Part shown: positions 2,269 through 41,327 of the stretch, one piece after another
How the letters are laid out: each line of letters begins with the position of its first letter
How positions within the stretch are numbered: position 1 is the first letter of the stretch
IMG/VR virus record: IMGVR_UViG_3300035510_000237
Strand: one strand, 5' to 3'
From: a virus
DNA: 43,034 nt
The notes under the pieces: model-generated
Database searches by the model: none
What the model saw: only the letters and a program-made list of their open reading frames with translations
What the model was told of the DNA's origin: nothing
Position numbers and translations under genes: made by a program

Positions 2269-2280
2269 TATAATATAATT

Positions 2281-11200: not shown

Positions 11201-13175
11201 CGCCTGACCTGTTATAATGCTAATATTAGATTTTATTCTTTCAAATCCCGCAGTAATTGAGTTGCCAAATAACGCCAAAAAAGCAGGAACCACTACTTTA
11301 GTAACTACTCCGCCTAAACCGCCTAATTTATCAATTAACGTATCAATTACTTCAATAAAACCTTCAATACCATCTAAAGCAGAAATAAAAGCATCATCAT
11401 CAATTAACTTAGAATAAATACTTTCTAAAGCTGCTTGCACTCTATCACTAGCAGCCTCCCAGCTTTCAGCATAAATATCCTATTGCTCCTAAAGGGTGCC
11501 CTCAGAAGTAGCAGCTGTCTCCAAATTCTGCTACATAGCGTCCCAGTTATCCATTAAAGCAACAAACTGAGTATACTGTCTTGTACCAGCAACGGTTTCA
11601 GCCAGCGCCATCTAAGTATCCTTGCTTAAAGTAGACCATTTAGCTGCGGTTTCGTCAAGGATAGTATCCATATCCTTTAAATCGCCAGAAGCATCTTTAA
11701 TATTTACTCCGACTTTCTCCAAAGCCTGAGAATAAGTACCTAAAGAAGTACCATCATCAAGAGTTTCTCCTAACTCTAGGTCTTGGATTCTCGCAAAAAC
11801 TGTTTTTAAAGCTGTACCTACTACATCGGCAGACTGACGAGTCTATGCTGTAATAGTAGCTAAAGCAGAGGCCGCATAATCATAGCTTAAACCTACGGTA
11901 TCACCTACAGCTGCGAACTTCTCAACGCCTTCTGCGATTTCTGCCGCACTAGATGCAGTCGTAGCACCTAACTTAGTAAGTACATCCGCATAACGCTCTA
12001 AGTTATCAGAACCATCTGAGAAGTTATTCCAAATAGCTGTCATATACTCGGAAACAGTATCCGCAGATTCGCCCATGACATTAGCTAGCTTTACGGTCGT
12101 TTCAACACGCTCGGCAACCTCTTCGTCATTTAACCTTTATATTCCATATAGCTCGCTACTTCTATATGCGTTCTCTTATGAACTGCTACAACTTTTCAAT
12201 TGTAGAGTAGACTATATCTCACCTAATATGAATGGTATTATCATTTTGTCCATCCTAGGTATTCCCTTTTCGATTCGCTTGAATCTACTCCTCTTTGACC
12301 GAGGATAGTCGTTGAACCTTTCTCTTATCGAGACTTGGCTGCGGATTGCCCAATCTTTTACCTTTTTACTATACCCATGATGATTAATCATAGCCATCAA
12401 ATTCTCTCTTTGATTTAGTAGTAAAAGCTCTAAGGGCTTGCCCGCAATTAAAGAATTTTTAGGGCAATAAATCTTTTATATTTATACGCTTGCCTTTGAT
12501 AATTATAAATTTACTACCATCAGCTCGTGTTTTAATTAATTCCGACTAAAGAAGATTTTAATTTTCCCTATTGATAATAAATCAGCGACGCGTTCGTATA
12601 ATCTGTCGTTGTGGTGCTTAAAGCTTTAGCTGCTTTATTCGCATTCTCTGCGAAGACCGCCATCTAGTCGCTAGTCTGCCCAGTAACAATTCTAATATTG
12701 TTTAATGATTCATTTAAATCTTCCGCATAATTAACAGCGGTTGAAATTCCACTCATTAAGCCATGAATAATACTAGATGATAACTACCATTTAGCTGCAT
12801 TCATTAAAGTGACTTTCAAGTCAGACATTAATGTGCTAGTCTATCTTAATGGAACCTCAGCATTCTAAATAGATGTCGCCAAAGAAGCAAATGCTTTCTA
12901 CCCACTAGTGCCGCAAGCCTCTAAAGTCTTACGATAAGATTCAAGACTTGTGCCACTCTATTTCAAAGAAGTATTAAACTTCGTTAAATCTAATTTACCA
13001 GAAGGAAGTGTAGCTTGCGCCAGCTATGTCTTTAATTGCGCGGCGGCCGCACTAGCTTCCTATATCTCTTTGGTTAAAATATTCTGGCCGCTACTTACGC
13101 TTGAGCCACTCGCAAGCTCAGTTAGCTATTTCTGTAAATCCTATAACTACGCCTTGGCCTAGGCAGTATCCGCGG
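2281..13175 (-). CDS. Tail tape measure protein, one giant TAG-recoded ORF. join(12541..13175, 2281..12134) with a group I intron at 12135..12540; about 3,480 aa after splicing.
   Basis: ATG at 13173-13175 follows an AAAGGAG RBS. The N-terminus has a TMP core, ...AAKALSTTTTDYTNASLIYYQQG | (K)LNDEEVAERVETTVKLANVMGESADTVSEYMTAIWNNF..LTKLGATTASSAAEIAEGVEKFAAVGDTVGLSYDYAASALATI... The C-terminus ...EIQEALNTLVNAASQYANRK* (TAA at ~2281) is typical of Firmicutes siphovirus TMPs. All ATG ORFs of at least 60 aa on the track between 4277 and 12076 share one frame and all terminate at TAG. I read 2281-5880 and 11159-12134 continuously with only TAG interruptions. There is a GGS-rich low-complexity stretch at ~5840-5960. 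Confidence 0.6.
12135..12540 (-). other. Group I self-splicing intron in the TMP gene, ORF-less.
   Basis: Minus-strand reading finds the core elements. P-like AATTGCGGGCAAG is the revcomp of ~12421-12433. Q is AATCCGCAGC exact, revcomp of ~12335-12344. R is GTTCAACGACTA exact, revcomp of ~12299-12310. S-like AGATATAGTCT is the revcomp of ~12200-12210. Splice sites were chosen so the 5' exon ends in U, the intron ends in G, and the frame is restored (..IYYQQGK|MLNDEEV..). The intron carries TAA/TGA stops in all frames. Confidence 0.7.
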
Positions 13176-13257
13176 TAAACGCTAGATTTACAGTAATCTA
13201 TTGTGCCATATATTTACTCCTTTCTCTCTCGGTTTTTCTATTTGCAAATAAAAAAAT

Positions 13258-26342: not shown

Positions 26343-26357
26343 TAACTTTCACCCCCT

Positions 26358-26713
26358 TAATATCCAGCCTTCTCCATAATATAATCATATGATATTAAGT
26401 TTTCTTCGGTATAAGGGATTTCTATTAATTTAAAATCATGAAGTGCACAAAAACGCTTCTTCTTATTATCATTAAACTATTGTTGATAGAAACCTTTCTT
26501 ACCACCATACTTAGCACTAGGCTCATAATGTTGTTTACCTTGATATTCAATAATAAAATCTATGTTATTATCATCATCAAAAACAACAAAGTCAAAACGA
26601 AGGGGGCGGCCACTTGAACTCTTTAGCTCAGGAAAAATATATTCCATTCTATATTTTAGCCCAGAACGCTCTAAGATTTCATGGATTTTTCGTTCTCCTC
26701 TACTAGCATCCAT
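26358..26713 (-). CDS. PD-(D/E)xK-like small nuclease (possible homing-endonuclease-like gene) between TerL and portal, ~118 aa, with 1 TAG.
   Basis: GGAGG RBS then ATG at 26713. It reads MDASRGERKIHEILERSGLKYRMEYIFPELKSSSGRPLRFDFVVFDDDNNIDFIIEYQGKQHYEPSAKYGGKKGFYQQ(Q)FNDNKKKRFCALHDFKLIEIPYTEENLISYDYIMEKAGY*. The D..(12)..IEYQGKQH spacing resembles a restriction-endonuclease-fold core. Confidence 0.4.
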
Positions 26714-26796: not shown

Positions 26797-29700
26797 TTAA
26801 TGAGGAGTATATAATTTCCATTCTTTAGCATTAAATTTCTTTTTCTTTCGTTTACTATCTTCTTCTTGCTTAATATAATACAAGCCATAACATAGCGCAG
26901 AAAATTTATCCTTATGAATACCTTTATTGGCCTATTTAAGAATAATATTAACTCCTTCATTTTCTTCTCGGAGATTAAGCATTTCTTCCTTTAGAATAGA
27001 AGTTAATGAATAAGGAATTAAATATTCCTTCCTCTGTTCTGGAGTCATATTCTATCCAACTTTAGTGCCAAGTAATTTGTTTTTAGCTAATTTATCGTCG
27101 ATTAAAAATTTAATTTTACCGCTATCTATCGCAGTCTATACAGTTGTATAAGCTTCTGTATTAATTGGCGCATTTGCTTTCATAATATAAACAGCATTAT
27201 CTTCTGTATCATCAGTGCGATATTTCTTATAATACTGCGCCGCATCTGCTTGCGTACCACCATATACTCCAAATGGAGGGTAATAATCACCAGTGGCTTT
27301 GTCCGTCTAAGATATTACCATGTCATCTATTAAGCCACCGCCAATACCATTACCATCAATGACAACCCTGCGGGCTTTATATTTATAAAATAATTTCTTT
27401 ATCATTATGGCCTAATCCTAGAAATGAGCATCTTCAAGAGTATAAATATTAACTAGATTCTTTATAGAATCTCCTTTGCTCTAAGGCCGCACTTTAAATA
27501 CACATATTACTGTTTGACATCCTTTACGTCCAACATCAACAGATAATATATAATATGCTTGCTCAGAAGAACGTCTTGAATATTCATTTTCAGGTTTCTC
27601 CAAGCTTCTATTTCTATCAAAATGCTCACCATCAAAGAAAGCATCTTCAACAGTACCTGACCAAACACTTTCATACTCACGGCCAAATGATGCTTCATTA
27701 AAGGTGGGGTCTTTCTTTAAGTCATTAATAAAGTTTTTAGACTAAAGGCCAGCAACTACTGGAATTCGCCAAGTTCCGCCCATGATATAAGCTTTGTCAG
27801 GCTAAATAATCATCTGGACGAGAGTCTAAATTAATTTCTCATAACTATATGTATTTTTATATCCAGCAGTAGTAATATAAAGCTGTGATTGATTTAAAAC
27901 TTCATCTTCTTGTGTTGTTCCATCAAGGCATTGGCGAGAAACGTTCATCAGAGGAATAATAACCTACTGAAGCATATCTTGGTCAACGCCAACACATTCC
28001 TCTATCAGACCGGCATGTTTACGAAGTCCACGAGAACTCTCTCTAGCTGCAACATTCTCTATATCTGAACCATTCTTGAATATAATCTTACATTTATCTT
28101 TGCCCATTTGGGTCTAGCCGCGACGCCAATCTATTTCTCGTTTAAATGCCGGAATTTTAGCGCAAATATCATTAACCTTTTCTTGAAGGATTTGAGCTGC
28201 CTGTTCTTTACCACCAGCAGTTGAGAATAAATGCGCGCCAGGATATAGAATACAACGAATCATCAAAGTTAGCACAGCGAGGAATGATTTCGAATCTTTA
28301 TATTCTAATAAATTCGCAAAATTTATTACGTTCAATTATGAACAGCTTATAGTTTCCTATAAGAATAGACTATATCACACTTTATTGTTATATAATAAAG
28401 TCCTCCTTTTTCGATTTAAGGGGTTCTCACCCACCGCATTAGCTTCGGCCCTACTCCTATTGCCTCTATTTTTATTCCGAGGAGGCTTATTTCAGGATAG
28501 TCGTTGAAGTTTATAAAATTATAGATATTTAAAAATGAATCCGCCATGAGACTTATATCTAATTTGTCTGCACACTTTAGAAATTACACTAGCATCTAAA
28601 CCTAATTGTTTAGCAGCTTCTCTAGCAGAAGGAAATTCTTTTATAAATTGTCCATCTAAAGTATACTATCCAACTCTTTTTGCATTCTAATTAGTTTTAG
28701 TTTCATATAAAGCAGCTCTAACATTTTCAGAAAGAGTAATTTTTCTTAGATTATTAAAATCATTATTTAATTTATTTCCATCAATATGGTCTATTACCTC
28801 ATTTTCTTTAATATTAAAATCATCTGCAAAAACACTATATACTAATTTGTGAATCATAATATCTTTTTTTACACCATTCTAACACAACGTAGCTTTATAA
28901 TAACCACAAGTTATCACTTGCTATAAAATATTATTTGTTTTGATATTATGTATTCTGCCTTTATTAGAAATTCTATAATTAGAATACTCTGGAATTTCTT
29001 TCCATTCTTCACCTATCTAATCGCCATCATATTTAACAAATTTTCTTCGTTCTTTATTGTTCTATGAGTGCCATTTTTTAGTATTTTCAGAATAGCTAAC
29101 CCATTCTAAATTTGTTACACTATTATTTAATTTATTTCCATCAATATGATTAACGACTGGTAGATTATTTGGGTTAGGAAGGAAATGCTCTGCTACCAAA
29201 CGGTGAGCATAAAACATTTTCTTTTTTCCATTTTTAGATAAACGATAATATTTATAGCCATGTTCGCCAATACTGCCTTTTAACATTTTCTAAGTAGTAT
29301 TATTATAAATATCACCATTATCATATATAATATAATTCTCATAATCTTTAATATTCGTTTTCATTTTCAAACCTCCATAATAATATCTTACCTGCGGATT
29401 TTCTTGTTCAATATATTATGAATTTAGAATCCCCGCAATTTAAGAGGTTTGTCCACAGAGATTATCTTAAAAATCTCTGGTTGGCGCAATTCAATTTACG
29501 CTCTCGGATACACAACATATACATACTTGTATCGCATAGCTACCCTTAAAAATACTCTCTAGTAAAAAAATAAGCTAAATGTTATTTTAATTTCTTTACC
29601 TTCAGAATTTTTAAAACATTTATTTCCTGCTTCATTAATATAAACAGGATAGCCACCTGACTACATAAAATCAACAAATAAATCAGGATACTCTCTCCAA

Positions 29701-29807
29701 AAAGCCACATAGGAACGAAGAGCTGGGATAATAGGCTTAATGCGCTCTTCTGAAATACCTATCTTCTTTTTATCAGTGGAAATATCTAATAGGTCTGCTA
29801 AAGCCAT
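26797..29807 (-). CDS. terL: Terminase large subunit. join(29498..29807, 26797..28295), interrupted by a 1.2-kb group I intron. TAG-recoded.
   Basis: Exon 1 reads MALADLLDISTDKKKIGISEERIKPIIPALRSYVAFWREYPDLFVDFM(Q)SGGYPVYINEAGNKCFKNSEGKEIKITFSLFFY(Q)RVFLRVAMRYKYVYVVYPRA|. Exon 2 reads YSKSFLAVLTLMIRCILYPGAHLFSTAGGKEQAAQILQEKVNDICAKIPAFKREIDWRRG(Q)TQMGKDKCKIIFKNGSDIENVAARESSRGLRKHAGLIEECVGVDQDMLQ(Q)VIIPLMNVSRQCLDGTTQEDEVLNQSQLYITTAGYKNTYSYEKLI(Q)TLVQMII(Q)PDKAYIMGGTWRIPVVAGL(Q)SKNFINDLKKDPTFNEASFGREYESVWSGTVEDAFFDGEHFDRNRSLEKPENEYSRRSSEQAYYILSVDVGRKGCQTVICVFKV... Splicing reconstitutes the ATPase P-loop ..VYPRA|YSKSFL.. and a C-terminal nuclease domain, ending at TAA at 26797-26799. The TAA of the upstream gene overlaps the TerL ATG (TTAATGG). 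Confidence 0.7.
28296..29497 (-). other. Group I intron in terL carrying a tandem HNH homing endonuclease ORF.
   Basis: Minus-strand reading finds P-like AAATTGCGGGGAT (revcomp of ~29425-29437) and Q-like AATCCGCAGG (revcomp of ~29388-29397) 5' of the ORF. 3' of the ORF are R CTTCAACGACTA (revcomp of 28501-28512) and S-like GATATAGTCT (revcomp of ~28366-28379). The exon junction restores the TerL P-loop in frame. Shared motifs (TTCAACGACTATCC, AGGAGTAG, AATCGAAAAAG) with the TMP intron indicate related IA-type introns. Confidence 0.65.
28519..29364 (-). CDS. Intron-encoded tandem HNH homing endonuclease: two complete NUMOD4/HNH_3-type modules in one frame, joined through TAG codons, ~282 aa if fused.
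   Basis: GGAGG RBS then ATG at 29362-29364. Module 1 reads MKTNIKDYENYIIYDNGDIYNNTT(Q)KMLKGSIGEHGYKYYRLSKNGKKKMFYAHRLVAEHFLPNPNNLPVVNHIDGNKLNNSVTNLEWVSYSENTKKWHS and ends at a TAG (29062-29064). The frame continues as (Q)NNKERRKFVKYDGD(Q)IGEEWKEIPEYSNYRISNKGRIHNIKTNNIL(Q)QVITCGYYKATLC(Q)NGVKKDIMIHKLVYSVFADDFNIKENEVIDHIDGNKLNNDFNNLRKITLSENVRAALYETKTN(Q)NAKRVG(Q)YTLDGQFIKEFPSAREAAKQLGLDASVISKVCRQIRYKSHGGFIFKYL* with TAA at 28519-28521. The repeated HIDGNKLNN motif and the C-terminal QYTLDGQFIKEF DNA-binding motif are typical of phage HNH homing endonucleases. TAG falls at positions where Q is typical (VYQYDLDG). Confidence 0.65.
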
Positions 29808-32261: not shown

Positions 32262-32483
32262 ATGATTTTCTCTATTATTTTAAATATTGTTTTAGCAATC
32301 ATGTTGGTAGGTTTATTTTTATTTGTTAAATATGTTTTGTTAAATTCTGTTTTAATTGATATATATGCAGATGCGGCAGCTCGACAACAAGTTGAAAATA
32401 TATTTCCATGTGATTATTTATTAATAGAAATAGCAACTAATTCTACTACTGATGGTTTTTCTTATGACTTTTCAAAGATATGA
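32262..32483 (+). CDS. Small membrane protein, 73 aa.
   Basis: Track ORF with a hydrophobic N-terminus (IILNIVLAIMLVGLFLFVKYVLL). Promoter and RBS are upstream, and it ends in TGA. Confidence 0.5.
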   Translation: MIFSIILNIVLAIMLVGLFLFVKYVLLNSVLIDIYADAAARQQVENIFPCDYLLIEIATNSTTDGFSYDFSKI

Positions 32484-32715
32484 AGAATTCAAGGTTATTG
32501 GAATGACAATTTTTACTCAAAGAACTAAAGATGATTTTTTTGAACATCAAGTAGAAATTGCCAAAAAATTGGAAAACCGCATTCCCGCAGATGATTTAGA
32601 AGATGTACTTGATGAAGCATTGAGTGAAATCATAGTTGTCCCAGATACTTACATATATCAAACCAAGGAGGGAACATACCATTGGCTCATGGAATTGCAA
32701 TCTTTTTATGGTTGA
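32452..32715 (+). CDS. Hypothetical early protein, ~84 aa; overlaps the previous gene, so the start is uncertain.
   Basis: Track ORF. It is acidic, ..DDLEDVLDEALSEIIVVPDTYIYQTKEGTYHWLMELQSFYG*. Confidence 0.4.
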   Translation: MVFLMTFQRYEEFKVIGMTIFTQRTKDDFFEHQVEIAKKLENRIPADDLEDVLDEALSEIIVVPDTYIYQTKEGTYHWLMELQSFYG

Positions 32716-32892
32716 CTTTATCAACCGTTGCTTTTCTTGAATATAGAGAATTTTGTTAGGATTTAAGTTTTGGAGCTAAGTTTGTAGTTATTACTATTTT
32801 TATAATTGGTGGGCCATTTTTTGCAGTCGCTGAAGTATTAAGTGCTATATTAGATTGTATACTGCCTTCCGGATGGGATGAGGATGATAGAC

Positions 32893-33303
32893 ATGACACT
32901 TTCGGGTGATGGAGCTTTAAGATTAAGTTTACTGTTGGAATGGGATGAATATACCAAAGAGCATGGATTAAAGAATCCTTATAAAAAGCGCAACAATGTT
33001 TTAATAGCTAATTCAGATAAAATGCGTGTAACCAGCACAGGTGTTATTTATGAAAATGATGTAGAGGCGCAACTTCCTCCAAAAGAAGAATGTGAAAATT
33101 GGAATAAAATGGAGTATGAATTTGTTGCGCGAGGCTTCCTAAAGGAAGCAGGATATGATGGCTTTCTGCGGCAAGTAGAATTTGCGCGAGGAGCTATTGA
33201 TTATTTGATTGATGAAATTTGTCCATGCGAAGCTGATGATGGTCAGTGTCATATGGATTGTCGATATTATGAAGGAGGGTGTACTAATGACTTTAGTACC
33301 TGA
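32893..33303 (+). CDS. Hypothetical Cys-rich early protein, ~136 aa.
   Basis: Track ORF 32878..33303, with the likely start at the ATG at 32893 (MTLSGDGALRLS..). The C-terminus CPCEADDGQCHMDCRYYEGGC is a possible metal-binding cluster. Confidence 0.45.
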   Translation: MTLSGDGALRLSLLLEWDEYTKEHGLKNPYKKRNNVLIANSDKMRVTSTGVIYENDVEAQLPPKEECENWNKMEYEFVARGFLKEAGYDGFLRQVEFARGAIDYLIDEICPCEADDGQCHMDCRYYEGGCTNDFST

Positions 33304-33538
33304 GAATACTACTAGACGAGTGGATGGGCTTGGCCGCATTACGCTGCCACGAGGCCTGCGGCAAAGATTTGCTATTGATGATAAAACTGAAATGGAAATT
33401 TATACTATGAATTATAATGGTAGAAATTATATTTGCCTTGGCGAAGCTAATGAAGTTGATGATAAGTATATCACTGCTAAAAATGTATTAGAAGAGCTTG
33501 GTGTGGAAGTTCCGCCTGAGCTTTTAGAAAAATTCTAA
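33287..33538 (+). CDS. AbrB/MazE (SpoVT_AbrB swapped-hairpin) family DNA-binding protein, 83 aa.
   Basis: GAAGGAGGGTGTACTA-ATG. It reads MTLVPENTTRRVDGLGRITLPRGLRQRFAIDDKTEMEIYTMNYNGRNYICLGEANEV.. The core R-VD-LGRI-LP---R--F-I---D-E-EIY matches the AbrB N-domain consensus. The track ORF 33209..33538 is the same frame starting upstream. Confidence 0.6.
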   Translation: MTLVPENTTRRVDGLGRITLPRGLRQRFAIDDKTEMEIYTMNYNGRNYICLGEANEVDDKYITAKNVLEELGVEVPPELLEKF

Positions 33539-33849
33539 ATTGGAAGGGAAGGTTTACACCTTCTCTTCTTTTTATTTTATTAAAGGTACTTAATTCTTAT
33601 TTTCCCAGAAATAAATAAATCGTGATGCCGAATTTAAAAGAGGTTTTGGAGGGAGTATAGCTCAGAGCAAACCCGATTCAAAAAACGAAAAAATTATTCT
33701 CCCGAAATACCCCCGCCCCCTACATCAATCAGAAAAAATTTTTTCGTTTCAGTCTCAGAAAAATATATAAAAGGTATTGCCGGGTCGCCAGAAAAGCAAC
33801 GCATCGAGCGTCTTGCCACCGCGGAGGTTTCACAGGCGCGCTAACGACC

Positions 33850-34330
33850 AAAAGCGCCGTAGTTTCAGCGCTTTAAAGTGTTGAAGTATTTTTTATCTAA
33901 TTGCTTCACCGCACTAAAGCATTGAAGCATCCCATAATGCACTTTAACACAGTAAAGCATTAACAATTTAAAGTCTTTCTCTCATGGACACCTGTGAGTT
34001 AGTTAGAACTAACTATGGTTAGCCCTAACTAACCCCCGGGCACTTTAACACAGTAAAGCGCTAATACACCGCCGCATTAACGCATTAATACTTTAGTGTG
34101 GCAGAGCGCACTTTAGCACAGTAAACAGCTAATGTTTTAAAGTTCTCCTGGAGCGGACACTTTAACACATTACAGTGCTACCTCGCTGACTCGGCAGAGC
34201 GCACTTTAACGATGTAAAGGGGCGATGTATTGAAGCAAAGAATTTTTAAATTATCTATTCGGCGCACTTCACTGCCCTAAAGCGCTAAAGCAAGGGGCGC
34301 CCTAGCAATCTGCACAAAGACAGGGCCGCA
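33850..34330. repeat. Non-coding iteron-like cluster with one core palindrome.
   Basis: A 19-20 bp unit (G)CACTTTAACACAGTAAAGC occurs about 5 times (~33938, 34040, 34108, 34158, 34200). There are also GCTTTAAAGTG/CTAAAGC dyads, GGCAGAGCGCACTTTA twice, and the palindrome GAGTTAGTTAGAACTAACTATGGTTAGCCCTAACTAAC at 33996-34033. No ORF lies on either strand. Confidence 0.6.
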
Positions 34331-34346
34331 TCTTTGTCTAATCTGC

Positions 34347-34381
34347 GAGCTTGACTAAACGCTGTTTAGCTGCTATAATAG
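34347..34381 (+). promoter_or_regulatory. Early promoter TTGACT-17-TATAAT.
   Basis: cttgactaaacgctgtttagctgctataatagagc lies upstream of the RBS (AAAGGAGAG) and ATG at 34413. Confidence 0.5.
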
Positions 34382-34412
34382 AGCTACAAAGAACAAAGGA
34401 GAGATACACACT

Positions 34413-34613
34413 ATGACACACTACACTATCACTTGCCCATACACTAACACTACCATTAAGAGAACCATTAGTGAATACGAGGCTATTGCTACAATGAGAC
34501 AGTTCACAACATACACCTTTGGAGAAATCTACCAGCTTAGTAAAAAGAACAATCCCCTGACTCTTTCCAGTAGCATGGGCATTATGTACACAATGACCAA
34601 AGAGATTGATTAA
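34413..34613 (+). CDS. Hypothetical early protein, 66 aa.
   Basis: Track ORF with a good RBS and a TAA stop. Confidence 0.5.
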   Translation: MTHYTITCPYTNTTIKRTISEYEAIATMRQFTTYTFGEIYQLSKKNNPLTLSSSMGIMYTMTKEID

Positions 34614-34694
34614 CATTTGTGCAGAACGCCACTTGAAAAGCGAATAAAGATAGAGTATAATAAAGGCACAGAAACGATGAAGGAGATATAAACT

Positions 34695-34877
34695 ATGAAG
34701 ATGTATGCGAAAACAAACAGCAAATGGATGGGCGTTTATCATTCCTCTCCTAATGAGTGGACAGAGGTCAAGTATGAAACTGAAAAGTATTTCCCCTCTG
34801 GTAGACGTGAGGTTCTGGTATTCGCAAACGGCGCAATGGAAAAGGCTGACAGATGCGATGTCTGCTATGTGTTTTAA
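34695..34877 (+). CDS. Hypothetical early protein, 60 aa.
   Basis: Track ORF with GAAGGAGATATAAACT-ATG and a TAA stop. Confidence 0.5.
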   Translation: MKMYAKTNSKWMGVYHSSPNEWTEVKYETEKYFPSGRREVLVFANGAMEKADRCDVCYVF

Positions 34878-34895
34878 TAGAAAGGGGTACAAACG

Positions 34896-35012
34896 ATGAA
34901 AAAGGTTATCATAGGTTTGGCTATCTTGCTTGCGGGTTTGATTGGTGCGGCGCTTGCAACACACAACGCAAAAAGCTATGTTTATAATGTAGCATACTAT
35001 GACGGTGTGTAA
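34896..35012 (+). CDS. Small secreted/membrane peptide, 38 aa.
   Basis: AAAGGGGTACAAACG-ATG. It reads MKKVIIGLAILLAGLIGAALATHNAKSYVYNVAYYDGV*, a lipoprotein-like signal, and ends in TAA. Confidence 0.4.
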   Translation: MKKVIIGLAILLAGLIGAALATHNAKSYVYNVAYYDGV

Positions 35013-35231
35013 GCACGTTAGTTGATGAAGACGGCGAAACGTTCATTGGTGACTATGACCTTGCAGAGGGTACATACTATGTGTGTTATGATAGCAATAA
35101 GACAGTAACAAGACTGGATGATGTACCTGTTAGATTTGAAAAGCTGGACTAATTGAAGTCCCTTTTAATAAGAAGAAGTAGTATCTGGTATAGTAATAGA
35201 ATGGGAATGAAAAACGGCATTCCCATTCTAT

Positions 35232-35340
35232 TATTTAAAATGAGTTAGTTAGAACTAACCATGGTTAATTGAAACTAACCCAGTAGCGCGAGTTAGTTAG
35301 AACTACCTACTGTTAGTTACCGCTAACGGCCTAGACTTCA
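35232..35340. repeat. Palindrome cluster (TTAGTTAGAACTAAC family) plus the conserved CCGCTAACGGCCTAGACTTCA box.
   Basis: gagttagttagaactaaccatggttaattgaaactaacc ... gagttagttagaactacctactgttagttaccgctaacggcctagacttca. Confidence 0.55.
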
Positions 35341-35434
35341 CCACGCTAAAGCGTTACAACAAAAAATCGCTAATTCGATGATGCTTTAAAGCACTAAAGT
35401 ATTTCCCGAAATGCTGCTTTAAAGTATTGAAGTG

Positions 35435-35570
35435 CGAGTTAGTTAGAACTAACTATGATTAGTTCTAACTAACTAGGGACTATGGGTTAGTTAGAACTAA
35501 CTATGATTAGTTCTAACTAACTAGGGACTATGGGTTAGTTAGAACTAACTATGATTAGTTCTAACTAACC
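35435..35570. repeat. Tandem array, three units of ~43 bp, of the perfect palindrome AGTTAGTTAG-AA-CTAACTAACT paired with its mirror TTAGTTCTAACTAACTAGGGACTATGGG.
   Basis: gggttagttagaactaactatgattagttctaactaactagggactat is repeated 3 times head to tail. Each unit contains two oppositely oriented 10-nt arms. Confidence 0.65.
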
Positions 35571-35715
35571 AAGGCGGACAGCAACACTTTAAAGCACTAA
35601 AGAGTTTGCGTGGACGTTTAATCAAAGACTTTAATAGATTAAAGTATTAAAGAAAAGTTTGCGCTGACATTCAAACAAACTTTTAAAAAGTTTTTGATTT
35701 TTATACAAAAACCCC

Positions 35716-35744
35716 TTGACAAATGAATGAAAAGGGCTTATAAT
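35716..35744 (+). promoter_or_regulatory. Early promoter TTGACA-17-TATAAT.
   Basis: ttgacaaatgaatgaaaagggcttataat lies upstream of the RBS and ATG at 35779. Confidence 0.55.
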
Positions 35745-35778
35745 GGTCACAGAATTTAACGAAAGGGGCTAATACATT

Positions 35779-35967
35779 ATGAAGTATAGCTATTATGAAA
35801 ATCTTATTGACAACGCTGAGACTGTTGAGGAAGCCGACCACATTATTACTTGCATTGAATGCGACATGAATATCACCGATGAAGATTTTGAAAAATCTAT
35901 TGTCTATGCACAGGAAGTTATGGACGAATTGGAAAGAGCACATAAATGGGAAAGAGATTTCATGTAA
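35779..35967 (+). CDS. Hypothetical acidic early protein, 62 aa.
   Basis: Track ORF with RBS GAAAGGGGC and a TAA stop. Confidence 0.5.
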   Translation: MKYSYYENLIDNAETVEEADHIITCIECDMNITDEDFEKSIVYAQEVMDELERAHKWERDFM

Positions 35968-36020
35968 TACAATTTGAAAAGAAAGGGCTACTTTTTAAAG
36001 GTAGCCCCTTTTTTACCCTA

Positions 36021-36340
36021 TGAGTTAGTTTCAACAAACTATAGTTAGTTCTAACTAACCTATAGGGCCAGTTAGTTAGAACTAACTACTGTTAGGCTCC
36101 GCTAACGACCTAGACTTCAATGCTTTAAAGTGCTAAAGTAAAATTTTGCGATTTTGGCGTCGCTTTAAAGTGCTAAAGCGATTCCCGAAATTCAACACTT
36201 TAAAGTGCTAAAGAGTTTGTGCGAGCGCTCACGCAAAGACTTCAGCAAGCTAAAGTGCTAAAGAGTTTGATTAAACGTCAATGGACTTTTAAACGAGAAT
36301 TTTAGCACGTTAAAGTATTAAAGTGCTGCTGATGGAAAGA
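36021..36340. repeat. Third copy of the composite non-coding repeat: palindromes + CCGCTAACGACCTAGACTTCA + CTTTAAAGTGCTAAAG iterons + TCCCGAAAT.
   Basis: gagttagtttcaacaaactatagttagttctaactaacc..ccagttagttagaactaactactgttaggctccgctaacgacctagacttcaa, then gctttaaagtgctaaag 3 times, gattcccgaaatt and ctaaagtgctaaagag twice. Confidence 0.6.
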
Positions 36341-36577
36341 AATGGGGTGTTACCCCCATTTCTTAAAGCTGGATTTCTCCCAGGCTCATATTTTTGATTT
36401 CTTTCATTATTTGACTTTTTAATGGTCAGAATGTGAACTAGGGAAAATACAAATTGACACCTTGTTTTCAGCACATTTTGGAGGAAAAACACATTCTGAC
36501 ACTATAAATTCCCTTGATTTTGTTGTAAGATATAGACGTTCCAAGGGAACGCAAACAAAATAAAGGGGTTTGATACT

Positions 36578-36742
36578 ATGGCATACAGAAATTATAAAAA
36601 AGCAATCAATGGTTGTTTCAACTACAATGAGGCTTTAGAGGTTTTCACCCAGGCTATGAATGATTCTAGGGTATCCAGCAAGCACTTGGAAAAGTTAAAT
36701 GCGCTGTGCTGGAATCGTTTCGTCCTTCGGGTAGCTTGTTAA
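36578..36742 (+). CDS. Hypothetical early protein, 54 aa.
   Basis: AAAGGGGTTTGATACT-ATG. It reads MAYRNYKKAINGCFNYNEALEVFTQAMNDSRVSSKHLEKLNALCWNRFVLRVAC* and ends in TAA. Confidence 0.4.
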   Translation: MAYRNYKKAINGCFNYNEALEVFTQAMNDSRVSSKHLEKLNALCWNRFVLRVAC

Positions 36743-36777
36743 AAGCTACCCACGAAAAAGAAAGAGAGGTTATACAA

Positions 36778-36948
36778 ATGACTATGCAAGAATTTTTCTC
36801 CGCTTGGAACGACTTTTTCCAGAACGAACTTGACAACTACAACACTATCCAGGCCGGCATTGATTTTTTTGTGAATGAACATGCTACCAGTTACGAGGAA
36901 TGGAATGCTATGCATGAACTGCTAGAAGATTCTTTCTCAGACCTTTAA
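36778..36948 (+). CDS. Hypothetical acidic early protein, 56 aa.
   Basis: AAAGAGAGGTTATACAA-ATG. Same frame as track ORF 36706..36948. TAA stop. Confidence 0.45.
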   Translation: MTMQEFFSAWNDFFQNELDNYNTIQAGIDFFVNEHATSYEEWNAMHELLEDSFSDL

Positions 36949-37053
36949 AAAAAAATAAGGTTTTTTTTCAAAAAAGAGTTGACTTCTAGGCCATTATCTG
37001 CTATACTATCAACGTGGGAACACACTATATAAATTTTTTTGGAGGCATGTAAA

Positions 37054-37182
37054 ATGTATACTAGCTTTGATTATGAAATTCAGTCTGACGAATTCGCAAT
37101 GGAATACGAGGAATGGCTAGCCCTTCAGGAGGAGCTTTACAATCCTGATTTTGAGGACATGGAAAAGAGCCTGAATAGCTGA
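37054..37182 (+). CDS. Hypothetical acidic early peptide, 42 aa.
   Basis: Promoter gagttgacttctaggccattatctgctatact then GGAGGCATGTAAA-ATG. It reads MYTSFDYEIQSDEFAMEYEEWLALQEELYNPDFEDMEKSLNS* with a TGA stop, followed by the hairpin terminator CCCCTGGGtgaaaatCCCAGGGG at ~37194-37217. Confidence 0.4.
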   Translation: MYTSFDYEIQSDEFAMEYEEWLALQEELYNPDFEDMEKSLNS

Positions 37183-37234
37183 CACAAAGAAAAATCCCCT
37201 GGGTGAAAATCCCAGGGGACAAAATGAAAAAAGT

Positions 37235-37270
37235 TCTTGACAAAACAGCATTTATAGCTTATACTATAAG
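37235..37270 (+). promoter_or_regulatory. Early promoter TTGACA-18-TATACT.
   Basis: ttcttgacaaaacagcatttatagcttatactataag. Confidence 0.5.
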
Positions 37271-37327
37271 AGAAGTCGGAACCCACCAAAAAATGACCGC
37301 CTTAAAGGCAGAGAGGAAACGATAATT

Positions 37328-37663
37328 ATGAAAGCAACTGAGATTAAAACCACATTCACCACCGATTGGACTTGCGACTATCTGGAAAGCCAGATGAATG
37401 AACGTTACAAGTTAATTGGTACTTCAAGAATAGACCGCATAACCCATGAATGCTTTTTCCATGGAATAGACGGCGATAAAGATATGGTCGAACCTGAATT
37501 CAGCTGGGATGTTCTGGAAAAGAAATTCATGGCAGTGGTAAATGAGGCTACTGAAATTATGAAAGCCCAATTTGCTGAGGCTTTCCAGGCGGAAAAAGAA
37601 AGAAAAATTGATACCTGGAAATGGGTAGCAGAGGAAAAAGCTGAAATGGCAGAAAACGAATAA
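37328..37663 (+). CDS. Hypothetical early protein, 111 aa.
   Basis: Track ORF with RBS GAGAGGAAACGATAATT-ATG and a TAA stop. Followed by the terminator hairpin TTTCCCGGTTC..GAACCGGGAAA at ~37673-37710. Confidence 0.55.
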   Translation: MKATEIKTTFTTDWTCDYLESQMNERYKLIGTSRIDRITHECFFHGIDGDKDMVEPEFSWDVLEKKFMAVVNEATEIMKAQFAEAFQAEKERKIDTWKWVAEEKAEMAENE

Positions 37664-37729
37664 ACAAAAAAACTTTCCCGGTTCTTGGAAACAGGAACCG
37701 GGAAAGATACAAAATATATAAGATTAGTA

Positions 37730-38060
37730 TGTTTTAATAGACTAAAGTATCAAAGTATACTGCGGCGGTATGTTTTAATACTTTAGCAAACTAAAACCTG
37801 GTGTAGAGGTATGTTTTTGCGATTTACTGTGATAAAGCATAGCAAGAAAGTATGTTTTGGTACTTTAAATTGATAAAGCGTCTCTCAGGGAAGGATACTT
37901 CAACGCTTTAAAGCACGGCCGCGCGTTGGCGGAGGGCGCAGCCCGTTCTGCCGCTTTAAAGTGCTAAAGCAAAAAATTCTGCTATATGCTTCATCGAGCT
38001 AAAGCGGTGAAGCACTCCCGAAAGCCACGCATCGTGCTCATAGCGGAATGAACAAACTTT
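37730..38060. repeat. Fourth iteron-like cluster of the (C)TTTAAAG / (G)CTAAAG family.
   Basis: ctaaagtatcaaagtatac, ttttaatactttagcaaactaaaac, ctttaaattgataaagcg, cgctttaaagcacggcc, ccgctttaaagtgctaaagc, gagctaaagcggtgaagcactcccgaaag. Confidence 0.5.
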
Positions 38061-38082
38061 CTAGCTCATCTTTGTGCATTAT

Positions 38083-38115
38083 GCCGGCTTGACAAAGCTC
38101 TAGCCGCATGATACA
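38083..38115 (+). promoter_or_regulatory. Early promoter TTGACA-17-TACAAT.
   Basis: cttgacaaagctctagccgcatgatacaat lies upstream of the RBS and ATG at 38148. Confidence 0.5.
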
Positions 38116-38147
38116 ATAGAGCCACACCATAGGAAAGGATTGATATT

Positions 38148-38381
38148 ATGTTAAAATTTAGGATTTATGACGCTGTGCAAGGTGATTTTCTGTTTCATAC
38201 CACTAGCAGGCTCGAAGCTATCCAGTTTCTGAACGTTGTGGAAGATGTTTTCAAGAAGGTGCATGGTGCATCCATTTTTCGGTACAGCTCTTACTATCTG
38301 GATATCTATGTTCCTAAGTCTGTAAATGAATACCAAAAAGCAGTATCTCTGCTTATTAGCGCCACTGCGGAAGGGGAATAA
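38148..38381 (+). CDS. Hypothetical early protein, 77 aa.
   Basis: Track ORF with RBS GGAAAGGATTGATATT-ATG and a TAA stop, then the hairpin GGGGAAtaacaTTCCCC. Confidence 0.55.
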   Translation: MLKFRIYDAVQGDFLFHTTSRLEAIQFLNVVEDVFKKVHGASIFRYSSYYLDIYVPKSVNEYQKAVSLLISATAEGE

Positions 38382-38404
38382 CATTCCCCTTCCCTTTTAT
38401 CCCA

Positions 38405-38445
38405 TGAGTTAGTTAGAACTAACTATAATTGGTTCTAACTAACCA
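38405..38445. repeat. Palindrome pair of the TTAGTTAGAACTAACTA family.
   Basis: gagttagttagaactaactataattggttctaactaacc. Confidence 0.55.
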
Positions 38446-38541
38446 AAAAAATATTTTTTTTTATTTTTTTTATTTACCCCCTTGACAAATCAATAAAAAA
38501 GTAGTATATTATAGATACAAAGTTTAAAGGAGCTGTTACCT

Positions 38542-38847
38542 ATGACTGAAATGGATAAACTTATCCGCCTGATGGGCGATTCTATCATTCCGCATGAGAT
38601 TGTTATGCACGAACTTACTCACACCCTTGCGATTGTCTACCCTTCCCGCAAGAATTATGTATGTGATGCCGTGTGTCATGAGTATTCCTATGGTGGCCCA
38701 TTGGGCTTGCTTGAAATCATGGGTTTGGTCGGTGATGACATTCTCGATGATGTTGAGGGCTGGCTCACTGCCGAAGAAGTGTTTGACAGAATCCGGAAGC
38801 ACTACTGTGAAAACTATGAACTAATTGACCTATTGGAGGGAATCTGA
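38542..38847 (+). CDS. Hypothetical early protein, 101 aa (Cys/His-containing).
   Basis: Track ORF. Promoter ttgacaaatcaataaaaaagtagtatatt, RBS AAAGGAGCTGTTACCT-ATG, TGA stop, then the terminator CTGAGCttcgGCTCAG+TTTTT. Confidence 0.55.
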   Translation: MTEMDKLIRLMGDSIIPHEIVMHELTHTLAIVYPSRKNYVCDAVCHEYSYGGPLGLLEIMGLVGDDILDDVEGWLTAEEVFDRIRKHYCENYELIDLLEGI

Positions 38848-38875
38848 GCTTCGGCTCAGATTTTTCCTTTAGCAA

Positions 38876-38965
38876 GAGTTAGTTAGAACTAACCATGGTT
38901 TACTCTAACTAACTAGAGGGAGCTATGGGTTAGTTAGAACTAACTATGATTAGACTAAACTAATT
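38876..38965. repeat. Palindrome cluster of the TTAGTTAGAACTAAC family.
   Basis: gagttagttagaactaaccatggtttactctaactaactagagggagctatgggttagttagaactaactatgattagactaaactaa. Confidence 0.55.
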
Positions 38966-39051
38966 GCGGCGCGCAATAAAAAAAATTAAAAAAAAACTAT
39001 TGACAAATTAAAATTTTATGATATAATATAAACATAAGATAAAGAAAGGAA

Positions 39052-39255
39052 TTGATACAAATGCTGTACAATGATAACATCGAATTCAATACCCTGTGGG
39101 AAGATATGGTAGAATGTGGAATCGCCACTGATGCAGAGCTGAGCCTTGCTTGTGCGCTGTGCGGTACTACTAATGAGACTTTAACAAGCGTCCTTTACAT
39201 TCGGACAGGCTGTAGAAGCTGGGCGCAAGTTATGGGAGAGGATGAAGAAGATTGA
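39052..39255 (+). CDS. Hypothetical early protein, 67 aa.
   Basis: Track ORF. Promoter ttgacaaattaaaattttatgatataat (TGn extended -10), leader aagataaagaaaggaattgatacaa-ATG, TGA stop. Confidence 0.55.
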   Translation: MIQMLYNDNIEFNTLWEDMVECGIATDAELSLACALCGTTNETLTSVLYIRTGCRSWAQVMGEDEED

Positions 39256-39336
39256 AAAATCTTCTTCAAACCCCTTGACAAGCCAATAGGAACGTGCTAT
39301 AATAAAGCTACAAGATAACGAAAGGAACTGATTCAA

Positions 39337-39609
39337 ATGACGTATAATTATTACAAGGCTGAACTGGACTATGCCGAAGATGAAGAATCCATTCGGGAAA
39401 TTATGGCTGGGGCTGAGATTGACGAATCTCTTTGTGATGAAGATTATGACCGCCTATATTGTATCGCCGAAGAATACATGGAGGAAATAGAAATGGAAGC
39501 CGAAGCACTTGCGCAAGAAGAAGAAGAAGAAACAGAAGAAGAACCTAAATGCTGGGGAATGCGTGACTACCTGAGATATATCGGCATGAAAGAAAAAGAC
39601 TTCCAGTAA
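39337..39609 (+). CDS. Hypothetical highly acidic early protein, 90 aa.
   Basis: Track ORF. Promoter cttgacaagccaataggaacgtgctataat, leader cgaaaggaactgattcaa-ATG, TAA stop, then the terminator hairpin AAGAGGATTTTCAT..ATGAAAATCCTCTT at ~39617-39657. Confidence 0.55.
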   Translation: MTYNYYKAELDYAEDEESIREIMAGAEIDESLCDEDYDRLYCIAEEYMEEIEMEAEALAQEEEEETEEEPKCWGMRDYLRYIGMKEKDFQ

Positions 39610-39778
39610 TTGGAAAAGAGGATTTTCATTTGAATAAAATAAAATGAAAATCCTCTTGCTCCATTTTCAAATCATTTTTTGATAGACACTTTTACAATTT
39701 TCAAATGATTTTTTGAATTTGCCTATTGACAAACTTCCAAACCTGTGATATAATAAAACCATAAGATAAAGAAAGGAA

Positions 39779-40045
39779 TTGATAATTATGATTAGCGCAT
39801 CAGATGCAAAAACAAAGGCCAAGACTTTTCTGGAAGAGAAAGAAAGAGCTGAGAGAACCAAAACCGTCAAGTGGGTAGAGGATGTGGTTGCTCTTAAAAT
39901 TGAAAGTGCTGCTGAACGGGGTACTTTTAGCATTGAAGTTTATATTCCTGGGGAAATGACAATTAAGTATGTGCAAGACCATTTGCGCAATCTGGGTTAT
40001 AGAACTGAGATGCACGCCTTTAATATGGCGATTCTTTGGGGCTAA
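39779..40045 (+). CDS. Hypothetical early protein, 88 aa.
   Basis: Track ORF. Promoter ttgacaaacttccaaacctgtgatataat, leader aagataaagaaaggaattgataatt-ATG, TAA stop. Confidence 0.55.
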   Translation: MIIMISASDAKTKAKTFLEEKERAERTKTVKWVEDVVALKIESAAERGTFSIEVYIPGEMTIKYVQDHLRNLGYRTEMHAFNMAILWG

Positions 40046-40054
40046 AAAAAGTTC

Positions 40055-40102
40055 TTGACAAATCCCTCTTGGAATGCTATAAATATAAGTGTTCCAAGAG
40101 GG
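40055..40102 (+). promoter_or_regulatory. Promoter with an embedded inverted repeat: TTGACA-[CCCTCTTGGAA]-TATAAA-[TTCCAAGAGGG].
   Basis: ttgacaaatccctcttggaatgctataaatataagtgttccaagaggg. The 11-bp arms flank the -10 hexamer. This is the first of five such promoters. Confidence 0.55.
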
Positions 40103-40132
40103 AAATAACCAATAGAAAGGAATTGATAAATC

Positions 40133-40456
40133 ATGGAAAAAATCGTTTTTAGTCAACATTGCTTAGAGGAAAGGCAAGACCGCATTGTGCGCATTGCGTC
40201 AACTATTGGTTTTGGGAATGTGATTGCGAAAGTCCATAGTTCTAACAGGACGGGCGCAACTGTTCACTGTCTGACTGATACAGGCGTTGTAATCGTAAAG
40301 GACAGCCGGGAAGAAATGGTTATTACATTGTTTGTCTGTAACATTGATAGGCTTTACGCTTATTGGAGAAAGATGGGACAGGATAAACCCCCACGGCAAA
40401 TTATGAAGGTTGTAGAAAACAACGAAAGAAAAAGAAAATTTCTTTATGAAATTTAG
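40133..40456 (+). CDS. Hypothetical early protein, 107 aa. It is the only early gene that terminates at TAG.
   Basis: Track ORF with leader agaaaggaattgataaatc-ATG. The stop is TAG at 40454-40456; readthrough would add 16 codons up to a TAA. Confidence 0.55.
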   Translation: MEKIVFSQHCLEERQDRIVRIASTIGFGNVIAKVHSSNRTGATVHCLTDTGVVIVKDSREEMVITLFVCNIDRLYAYWRKMGQDKPPRQIMKVVENNERKRKFLYEI

Positions 40457-40465
40457 AAAAACCTC

Positions 40466-40513
40466 TTGACAAAATCCCCTTGGGATGCTATAATATAAGT
40501 GTTCCAAGGGGAA
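40466..40513 (+). promoter_or_regulatory. Promoter with an embedded inverted repeat: TTGACA-[CCCCTTGGGA]-TATAAT-[TTCCAAGGGG].
   Basis: ttgacaaaatccccttgggatgctataatataagtgttccaagggg. Confidence 0.55.
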
Positions 40514-40533
40514 CAAAACAAATTTGAAAGGAA

Positions 40534-40920
40534 TTGATACAAATGATAGATTTTATTTCTAATGGAGAAAAAACCATTGCTATTGACCTGGAGACTACTG
40601 CTATTCCTGTGGAGTACGCTAGAAAGATTTGTGAGGCCAAACAGAGAGAAAAGCTAGAAGCCTATAACAAAAAGATTGCAACTTTGGTTAAAACTGCTAT
40701 TTCTCACATTAACGAAGAGCTTATGAATGGAAAGATTCATGCATCTTATCTTTTTACCCCTTATAATGCAGATATTTCCAGAGACGATGCCCTTAAAATT
40801 TGCCATTTGATTGAAGCAGAGTTTAAAGATAAAGGATATTGGACTTTCATTTATGAGTATGCTGAAAGTAACCACAATAAATATGCTAGCATTGACATTT
40901 CTATCCCCGAAAAAAAATAA
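40534..40920 (+). CDS. Hypothetical early protein, 128 aa.
   Basis: Track ORF with leader tgaaaggaattgatacaa-ATG and a TAA stop. Confidence 0.55.
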   Translation: MIQMIDFISNGEKTIAIDLETTAIPVEYARKICEAKQREKLEAYNKKIATLVKTAISHINEELMNGKIHASYLFTPYNADISRDDALKICHLIEAEFKDKGYWTFIYEYAESNHNKYASIDISIPEKK

Positions 40921-40932
40921 ATAAAAAATCTC

Positions 40933-40980
40933 TTGACAAATCTCTCTTGGAGTGATATAATAAAGATGCTCCAAGAGAGA
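40933..40980 (+). promoter_or_regulatory. Promoter with an embedded inverted repeat: TTGACA-[TCTCTCTTGGAG]-TATAAT-[CTCCAAGAGAGA].
   Basis: ttgacaaatctctcttggagtgatataataaagatgctccaagagaga. Confidence 0.55.
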
Positions 40981-40996
40981 TAAACAAAGAAAGGAA

Positions 40997-41275
40997 TTGA
41001 TAATTATGAAAATTTATGAAATTCTCACCGCTAGCTATCTCAACAGTGATAGAAACCAAGAGATATGTGCTTATGTTGCATCAAAAGAGATTGTGGAAGA
41101 TTATATCCATGCGTGTATCCCTGAAATTACATCGGTCACTGATAAAAAAGATGGCAGAGTTGTTTGGGCATCAGATTGGAAATGGACAGATTTCCCCGGT
41201 TTTGCTCCTGGGCTTGTTTATAGAGATAAAGAAAATTGTATATTCTTTAGAGAAATCGAAGTAATTGAAAATTAA
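40997..41275 (+). CDS. Hypothetical early protein, 92 aa.
   Basis: Track ORF with leader agaaaggaattgataatt-ATG and a TAA stop. Confidence 0.55.
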   Translation: MIIMKIYEILTASYLNSDRNQEICAYVASKEIVEDYIHACIPEITSVTDKKDGRVVWASDWKWTDFPGFAPGLVYRDKENCIFFREIEVIEN

Positions 41276-41278
41276 CTC

Positions 41279-41327
41279 TTGACAAAACCCTCTTGGAGTG
41301 ATATAATAAAGATACTCCAAGAGGGAG
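41279..41327 (+). promoter_or_regulatory. Promoter with an embedded inverted repeat: TTGACA-[CCCTCTTGGAG]-TATAAT-[CTCCAAGAGGG].
   Basis: ttgacaaaaccctcttggagtgatataataaagatactccaagaggg. Confidence 0.55.

Follow-up and report, generated by a model that had tools for sequence, protein, structure and literature searches.

We analyzed a 43,034-nucleotide stretch of viral DNA (IMG/VR virus record IMGVR_UViG_3300035510_000237), referred to here in its full length as the window. On its minus strand the packaging gene terL is split by a group I intron of 1202 nt inside the conserved motif ...PRA|YSKSF..., and the predicted splicing restores TerL. The P6 loop of this intron houses an open reading frame (ORF) for a homing endonuclease in which a cassette of a NUMOD4 and an HNH domain occurs twice, followed by a single DNA-binding tail. 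An earlier note, drawn up from the DNA letters, had described the endonuclease and had suggested a special role for the TAG codons in its frame. The main part of that interpretation, one double-HNH protein with a tail in the terL intron of a recoded phage, is borne out below, while the special role of TAG is not.

Exon 1 of terL ends with ...CCG AGA GCG T and exon 2 opens with AT TCG AAA... at position 28295. Joining 29498 to 28295 yields ...VYPRA-Y-SKSFLAV..., in agreement with the earlier claim of an intron in terL, and the joined protein is collinear up to its C-terminus with three TerL proteins from standard-code, intron-less genes (Enterococcus phage H1, Geobacillus virus E3, and MT836163). 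In these three, the same site reads ...FPRAYSKSFL... once and ...FTRAFSKSFL... twice. The intron-less terL junction has the sequence ...TATCCGAGAGCGT|ATTCGAAATCATTCC... (also given as ...GTGTATCCGAGAGCGTATTCGAAATCATTCCTCGCT...), and since MT836163 is without the intron, the intron is optional. P1 (GCGU|aaauugaauuGCGC) pairs GCGU| with ...GCGC and places a U.G pair at the 5' splice site, and the intron ends in ...aaag, with G as its last base. The P4/P6 pairing is UGCGGG/CCGCAG, J6/7-P7 is represented by UUCAACGACUA and GAUAUAGUC, and motifs for P8 and P9 are present. Visual inspection gave the pairings of P1, P2, P4/P6, P7, P8, and P9, and in part they also appear in the minimum free energy fold of the RNA from which the ORF had been deleted.

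The terL gene and its relatives contain other insertions as well. Relative to the three compared TerL proteins, about 22 residues (QSGGYPVYINEAGNKCFKNSEG; approximately 29578-29661 on the minus strand, residues 49-76) are inserted in TerL exon 1. Further insertions occur in orthologous terL regions (L001, 5101-8439; L003 and L004, 5103-7590; L010, 3624-3845; L092, 4826-5133), and the proteins encoded in insertions of related terL regions are of the LAGLIDADG, GIY-YIG, and single-HNH types. Two related terL loci contain ORF-less group I introns that pass Rfam; exon 2 in the window is uninterrupted.

The endonuclease ORF reads exactly as the earlier note had quoted it, and its 281 codons followed by TAA, when TAG is taken as sense, match the recoded protein of about 282 amino acids (aa) proposed there. 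A public protein collection holds an identical 281-aa protein (P0001). TAG is found at codons 25, 101, 116, 148, 162, 226, and 233 and accounts for seven of the 11 Gln codons. Under the standard code, translation from the ATG at 29364 ends after 24 residues and the biggest remaining piece of the frame is a 74-aa ORF (29062-29286), which fits the description of a short HNH ORF plus debris; codon 25, a TAG within module 1 (TAG25), had been overlooked. Module 2 finds its first in-frame starts only at GTG150, TTG160, and ATG170. At 35% GC, the chance of 281 codons without TAA or TGA is about 1e-7 (estimated from base composition), and this figure, together with more than 3000 homologs of the protein, argues that the frame is not a product of chance.

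The profile search suggested in the earlier note, run against Pfam on the translation with TAG as Gln, matched HNH_3 twice (E-value 4e-18) and NUMOD4 twice (E-value 8e-13), and at the C-terminal tail it recovered NUMOD1 (PF07453; E-value 1e-8) and I-HmuI_NUMOD-like (PF22083; E-value 5e-8). Both HNH modules are thus complete and in one frame, and the NUMOD-like DNA-binding tail is likewise confirmed. The matches span aa 4-95 (NUMOD4 and HNH_3), aa 119-216 (the second NUMOD4 and HNH_3), and aa 229-279 (NUMOD1 and I-HmuI_NUMOD-like). The predicted catalytic positions are N72-H73, N85, and N94 in module 1 and D192-H193, N205, and N214 in module 2, and the two modules share 40% identity (38/94, E-value 1e-15). 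In the AlphaFold model, with a predicted local distance difference test (pLDDT) value of 90.5, the pattern of strands and helices is alike in both modules. The sole solved relative is I-HmuI (PDB 1U3E; profile E-value 5e-24, Foldseek E-value 1e-12), in whose alignment H73 of the endonuclease corresponds to H75 and N94 to N96. NCBIfam gave no match to the endonuclease, and PHROGs contains only single-module HNH profiles, each matching twice, none of which covers the tandem collinearly. The coordinates of all features are collected in Table 1.

TABLE 1. Features of the interrupted terL gene and of the endonuclease ORF (positions in the window).
Feature	Position	Strand	Remarks
terL exon 1	29498..29807	-	ATG at 29807; 103 codons and first base of split Tyr codon; 2 TAG
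Group I intron in terL	28296..29497	-	1202 nt; endonuclease ORF in P6 loop
terL exon 2	26797..28295	-	Opens with last two bases of split Tyr codon; 12 TAG; ends with TAA
Intron-encoded homing endonuclease gene	28519..29364	-	281 sense codons and TAA; 7 in-frame TAG (Gln), no TGA
Shine-Dalgarno-like GGAGG	29372..29376	-	7 nt 5' of endonuclease ATG; sequence attattatGGAGGtttgaaaATG
Module 1 (aa 4-98), NUMOD4 beta-sheet and HNH_3	29071..29355	-	Pfam; I-HmuI residues 4-107 aligned
TAG codon 25	29290..29292	-	Within NUMOD4 of module 1; orthologs show K, N, or Q
Inter-module linker (aa 99-118)	29011..29070	-	Holds TAG101 and TAG116; pLDDT dips to 67
TAG codon 101	29062..29064	-	Inter-module linker
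TAG codon 116	29017..29019	-	Inter-module linker
Module 2 (aa 119-218), NUMOD4 and HNH_3	28711..29010	-	Pfam; predicted secondary structure like module 1
C-terminal DNA-binding tail (aa 229-281), NUMOD1/I-HmuI NUMOD-like helix-turn-helix	28522..28680	-	Pfam; I-HmuI residues 131-170 aligned
TAG codon 233	28666..28668	-	Column is Gln in 68/69 orthologs; CAA/CAG used by ten
27-nt exact repeat, module 1 copy	29122..29148	+	HIDGNKLNN encoded on minus strand
27-nt exact repeat, module 2 copy	28762..28788	+	HIDGNKLNN encoded on minus strand

The use of TAG in the endonuclease corresponds to that in the late genes. If TAG counts as sense, 37.2 kb of the minus strand is occupied by ORFs of at least 100 aa, versus 9.7 kb under the standard code. 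TAG makes up 2.70% of the codons in 18 long (late-gene) ORFs, versus 2.49% in the endonuclease ORF, and is the commonest Gln codon of the genome (232 of the 449 Gln codons in these 18 ORFs); the tape-measure ORF of 3265 aa carries 113 TAGs. There are 14 TAGs in TerL, and 11 of the 13 that can be aligned match Gln in at least one of the three homologs, two of them matching Gln in all three. TAG also stands at conserved Leu positions, namely codon 288 of TerL (numbered in the spliced product; exon 2, 26797-28295), where all three standard-code proteins have Leu, and codon 116 of the endonuclease (29017-29019), which is Leu in 67 of 69 orthologs. Judging from these alignments, the genome is TAG-recoded with TAG read as Gln (genetic code 15).

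Both its TerL and its giant tape-measure gene put the window phage close to the phAss-1 group of siphophages from the gut, and its late genes read TAG as glutamine. Assignment to the crAss-like phages, which the recoding and the giant ORF might suggest, was rejected, as TerL similarity leads to SPbeta/phAss-1-like siphophages and the giant ORF encodes the tape-measure protein. The phAss-1 or ‘Phassvirus’ group likewise has TAG-rich late genes (PMC10607447); its tape-measure protein is about 3150-3260 aa long, close to the 3265 aa of the ORF in the window, and its TerL is 43% identical to that of the window. The window phage is only distantly related, and the paper on this group reports no introns or homing endonucleases (PMC10607447). 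When 50,697 phage records were searched with the terL region by megablast, no close relative came up, only HNH fragments of 32-54 nt. We also observed that ORFs of at least 80 aa at about 32400-41300 contain zero or one TAG each, in contrast to the many TAGs of the structural and packaging block (2-32 kb); this split looks like that between early standard-code and late recoded genes of recoded phages.

The tandem endonuclease belongs to a large set of proteins with the same layout. The 120 best of 3022 homologs are all 274-296 aa long, with 95-100% query coverage and 60-68% identity (apart from the identical P0001), and in the orthologs examined the genomic context consists of a YonG_N gene, terL exon 1, the endonuclease, and terL exon 2. 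A scan for distant family members among 1.84 billion cluster representatives gave 711 matches below 1e-30. At least 22 clusters of 270-310 aa are collinear with the whole query at 38-58% identity; many of the other matches are longer multi-HNH proteins. H73, N85, N94, D192, H193, N205, and N214 are invariant in 70/70 orthologs, and the His and both Asn of each module are invariant in 23/23 distant sequences (from the clusters at 38-58% identity). Among the distant relatives, both modules show N, D, or H immediately before the His, with 12 N versus 11 D in module 2. The HNH part of module 1 is the best-conserved segment of the protein. When modules are compared across the distant set, the nearest neighbor of module 1 is another module 1 in 23/23 cases and that of module 2 another module 2 in 22/23. 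Since the modules group by position, the duplication predates the family, and the tandem layout is, by this grouping, an ancient single duplication that has become widespread. No tandem relative was listed among cultured phages in a tblastn search of the endonuclease against phage records (about 1600 matches), where the top matches are single-module genes that match both halves of the query.

Taken together, we assign a probability of about 0.8 to the reading that the intron carries one gene for a single 281-residue endonuclease of the I-HmuI class (HNH_3), in which the NUMOD4 and HNH cassette occurs twice before one NUMOD1/helix-turn-helix tail and the TAGs are ordinary Gln codons. Such an enzyme would bind the intron-less terL junction via its tail and its two beta-sheet elements, and as a monomer it would cut both strands, or two positions, with its two HNH centers, thereby starting intron homing. 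With a TAG as early as codon 25, production of the enzyme would require amber suppression, and its expression would thereby be tied to the late, recoded phase and to recoded genomes. A broader proposal, for which we see slightly less than an even chance, is that the tandem proteins form a large, deep, and so far uncharacterized single-chain HNH family with two intact, diverged centers and one tail, in which a monomer could cut both strands of an asymmetric target in the manner of single-chain LAGLIDADG enzymes, and not nick like I-HmuI, and whose recoded copies, having adopted TAG for Gln, would be limited to amber suppression, recoded genomes, and the late phase.

Several observations weigh against this picture. 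On the terL intron, Rfam RF00028 yields a partial match (28348-28376, a P7'/P9 fragment) of 19.4 bits with an E-value of 0.04, where the gathering score is 50. Probably the 846-nt ORF in P6 disrupts the model; the corresponding intron in the orthologous loci was also missed by Rfam. With Rfam below its threshold, the intron call rests on the protein junction and the hand-checked helices, from which we infer ribozyme activity. In the AlphaFold model the predicted template modeling (pTM) score is 0.61 and the inter-domain geometry is uncertain; with so low a score, the model does not predict how the two modules are placed relative to each other. Asn72 of module 1 stands where I-HmuI has the metal ligand Asp74. 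ARAGORN detected no tRNA, and hence no suppressor tRNA, in the 43-kb window, which is part of the genome only; decoding of TAG as Gln therefore rests on the alignments and on related phages, as phAss-1 relatives encode two to three copies of tRNA-Sup(CUA)-Gln (PMC10607447). The endonuclease itself has Gln at four positions where another residue is at least 90% conserved (L116, P149, R159, and G267). Finally, 8-9 of the 33 in-frame TAGs in 13 orthologous genes fall on positions that are otherwise invariant K, Y, W, N, E, or L (loci L001, L003, L089, L090, L091, and L175; for example W88 in L091, Y39 in L090, and Y91 in L089). Most invariant residues hit in this way have codons one substitution away from TAG, and these genes could be decaying copies tolerated through Gln decoding, or assembly errors.

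The main rival, which we consider unlikely though deserving of attention, retains the single tandem protein and holds that one of its modules is a catalytically silent pseudo-nuclease for DNA recognition, so that the enzyme would nick as I-HmuI does, with a longer footprint. In favor of this, I-HmuI, I-BasI, and I-TwoI nick one strand. I-PfoP3I was also reported to nick one strand (PMC3428280), and the characterized relatives of the class are all strand-specific nickases (PMC3428280; PMC3017599). His-Me folds have moreover been reused as DNA binders, for example in SMAD MH1 (PMC3384342), and the Asn at position 72 would point to module 1 as the silent partner. However, in the distant sequences the residue before the His switches between N, D, and H in both modules, and N72 is therefore no mark of inactivity. 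Module 1 also contains the most conserved segment of the protein, and if one module only bound DNA, it would be difficult to see why the general-base His and both Asn are invariant in both modules throughout the 70 orthologs and the 23 distant sequences.

Two further alternatives deny that the frame is simply read through. According to the first, which we regard as very improbable and which the earlier note had raised in suggesting that TAG could be a leaky, context-dependent boundary, TAG101 is a leaky terminator that yields a module 1 protein of about 12 kDa and a 33-kDa fusion in a regulated ratio. TAG101 does sit exactly at the end of module 1, and the 20-codon linker holds two TAGs out of the seven (binomial chance of two or more about 0.08, an estimate). 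Among the 13 orthologous genes with DNA, TAG occupies the same alignment column in three (the window, L089, and L174). These three belong to a small “WHxQK” subclade with Gln at this position, however, in which L173 uses CAA/CAG. In 65 of 69 orthologs the boundary column is not Gln and holds N (33 cases), T, K, L, E, G, or S, with Q in the other four. The linker is the least conserved segment (mean column conservation 0.50, versus 0.69-0.85 in the modules), and a Gln somewhere within it is to be expected, being present in 49 of 69 orthologs. The 3' context of TAG101, TAG-A, is shared with TAGs 25, 116, 162, and 226. The 13 genes contain 7, 2, 2, 0, 0, 5, 4, 2, 0, 0, 6, 4, and 1 in-frame TAGs, mostly at differing positions, and the four without any (L009, L010, L092, and L173) are continuous two-module ORFs under the standard code.

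TAG25 also speaks against a leaky boundary. As it lies inside module 1, no ribosome can make module 1 without already treating TAG as sense, and a product consisting of module 1 only would itself need suppression; it would also be without the DNA-binding tail, and module 2 has no start of its own. The comparison thus already largely refutes a programmed boundary, and the statement that the modules are fused only through TAG codons fails on the same grounds (TAG25, the TAG-free two-module orthologs, and the non-Gln boundary column). All seven TAGs, including the one at the boundary, are by this comparison ordinary Gln codons, and the boundary TAG lies in a variable linker with no special role.

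Least probable of all is that the locus holds two adjacent or nested genes, or a decaying pseudogene, with only one piece functional and an accidental long frame: the 74-aa HNH ORF and fragments seen under the standard code, the TAGs at invariant Tyr or Trp in some orthologs, and the general tendency of homing endonuclease genes to decay once fixed would agree with it, but 281 codons free of TAA and TGA at 35% GC, a module 2 without start codon, the collinear layout of the 120 best homologs and the at least 22 distant clusters, and the TAG-free orthologs all oppose it. The idea that the copy in the window is a decayed pseudogene was rejected for its own reason: it departs from the family at only four of 118 highly conserved columns (median 2, maximum 10) and is not obviously decayed.

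The two modules also share an exact DNA repeat. The duplicated motif described in the earlier note is real, although it is an exact 27-mer (28762-28788 and 29122-29148) and not a 30-nt motif at 28761 and 29121; the string given there has 26 nt and starts at 28763 and 29123. We rejected the repeat as a mark of recent duplication or gene conversion, because the modules are otherwise 40% identical, HIDGNKLNN is kept family-wide in both modules, and the two copies in orthologs agree at 19-26 of 27 bases. The identity at the DNA level is attributed to the conserved peptide combined with strong codon bias; from codon bias alone, full 27-nt identity has a probability of about 0.009, which is weak for a post-hoc observation.

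Among known systems, the closest are I-HmuI (from the DNA polymerase intron of Bacillus phage SPO1; 1U3E), I-HmuII, I-BasI, I-TwoI, and I-PfoP3I. They share with the endonuclease of the window the HNH_3 beta-beta-alpha-metal nuclease, a NUMOD4 antiparallel beta-sheet before it and a NUMOD1-type helix-turn-helix tail after it, and they are likewise encoded in a phage group I intron of a conserved gene. They differ in having one cassette (about 170-190 aa) and nicking one strand, whereas the protein of the window has two cassettes (281 aa), each with His/Asn/Asn. The I-HmuI monomer is extended and has a single HNH domain (PMC3384342), and one catalytic domain per monomer holds for all characterized I-HmuI-type members but not for the protein studied here. 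I-TevIII, the HNH endonuclease of the phage RB3 nrdB intron, makes a double-strand break by dimerizing (PMC1865063); there, two catalytic centers are joined by dimerization, while in the window they are 40% identical parts of one polypeptide. By analogy only, the relation recalls that of the monomeric double-motif LAGLIDADG enzymes (I-SceI, I-AniI) to homodimeric I-CreI, where duplication led to a single chain with two divergent sites and an asymmetric target (PMC3943268). The LAGLIDADG fold and chemistry are unrelated, and the two-site mechanism is proven for those enzymes but presumed for the endonuclease of the window.

Multi-HNH proteins of giant viruses and some phages (L066, L078/L079, and L137) resemble the window protein in encoding at least two HNH_3 modules per standard-code ORF. 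The proteins translated from these three giant-virus-type loci are organized as two NUMOD4-HNH-tail units, each module with its own tail, over 340-420 aa, in contrast to the two cassettes and one shared tail of the family described here. Alignments covering both modules were also obtained with many BFVD entries from Marseillevirus, Klosneuvirus, Pithovirus, mimivirus (‘intron encoded HNH endonuclease’), and PBCV-1. None of the multi-HNH proteins of giant viruses and phages appears to have been studied biochemically. The terL gene is also a target of group I introns in Bastillevirinae and in Enterococcus phage EF1, where it is split and accompanied by an HNH gene annotated as ‘Phage intron’. 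EF1 differs from the window in its insertion site and in its endonuclease, which is of single-module size (528 bp, about 175 aa). In the literature, a search for homing endonucleases with a tandem, double, or two-HNH arrangement led only to Cap5, Argonaute-HNH, and restriction enzymes, with no paper on a tandem-HNH homing endonuclease. The reviews consulted and the His-Me superfamily classification cover tandem repeats of NUMOD DNA-binding elements and mention no tandem nuclease domains.

No new principle is involved, as HNH enzymes encoded in introns, terL introns, and TAG-to-Gln phages were already established; the two-cassette single-chain architecture is conserved and common in sequence databases, but apparently never characterized. 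For annotation, the locus illustrates that the intron endonuclease of a recoded phage looks like a short ORF plus debris under the standard code, and that a stop-like codon between domains should not be given a regulatory reading without comparison of orthologs. A widespread tandem-HNH family with both active sites conserved, of which apparently no member has been characterized, offers a direct test of how HNH enzymes, typically nicking, reach a double-strand break, and could yield compact two-site nucleases or paired nickases.

Elsewhere in the window we noted two additional features. An ORF of 118 aa directly downstream of terL (26357-26713, minus strand) gives a weak match to DUF2726 (PD-(D/E)XK-like, E-value 4.5e-4) and may be a free-standing nuclease adjoining the packaging gene. 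A second, ORF-less group I intron lies at 12187-12510 on the minus strand and passes the Rfam gathering threshold (RF00028, 61.6 bits). It appears to split the giant tape-measure gene into ORFs at 12532-13209 and 2279-12076: the downstream 3265-aa ORF enters the PhageMin_Tail profile only at its position 50, and the upstream 225-aa ORF therefore probably provides the missing start.

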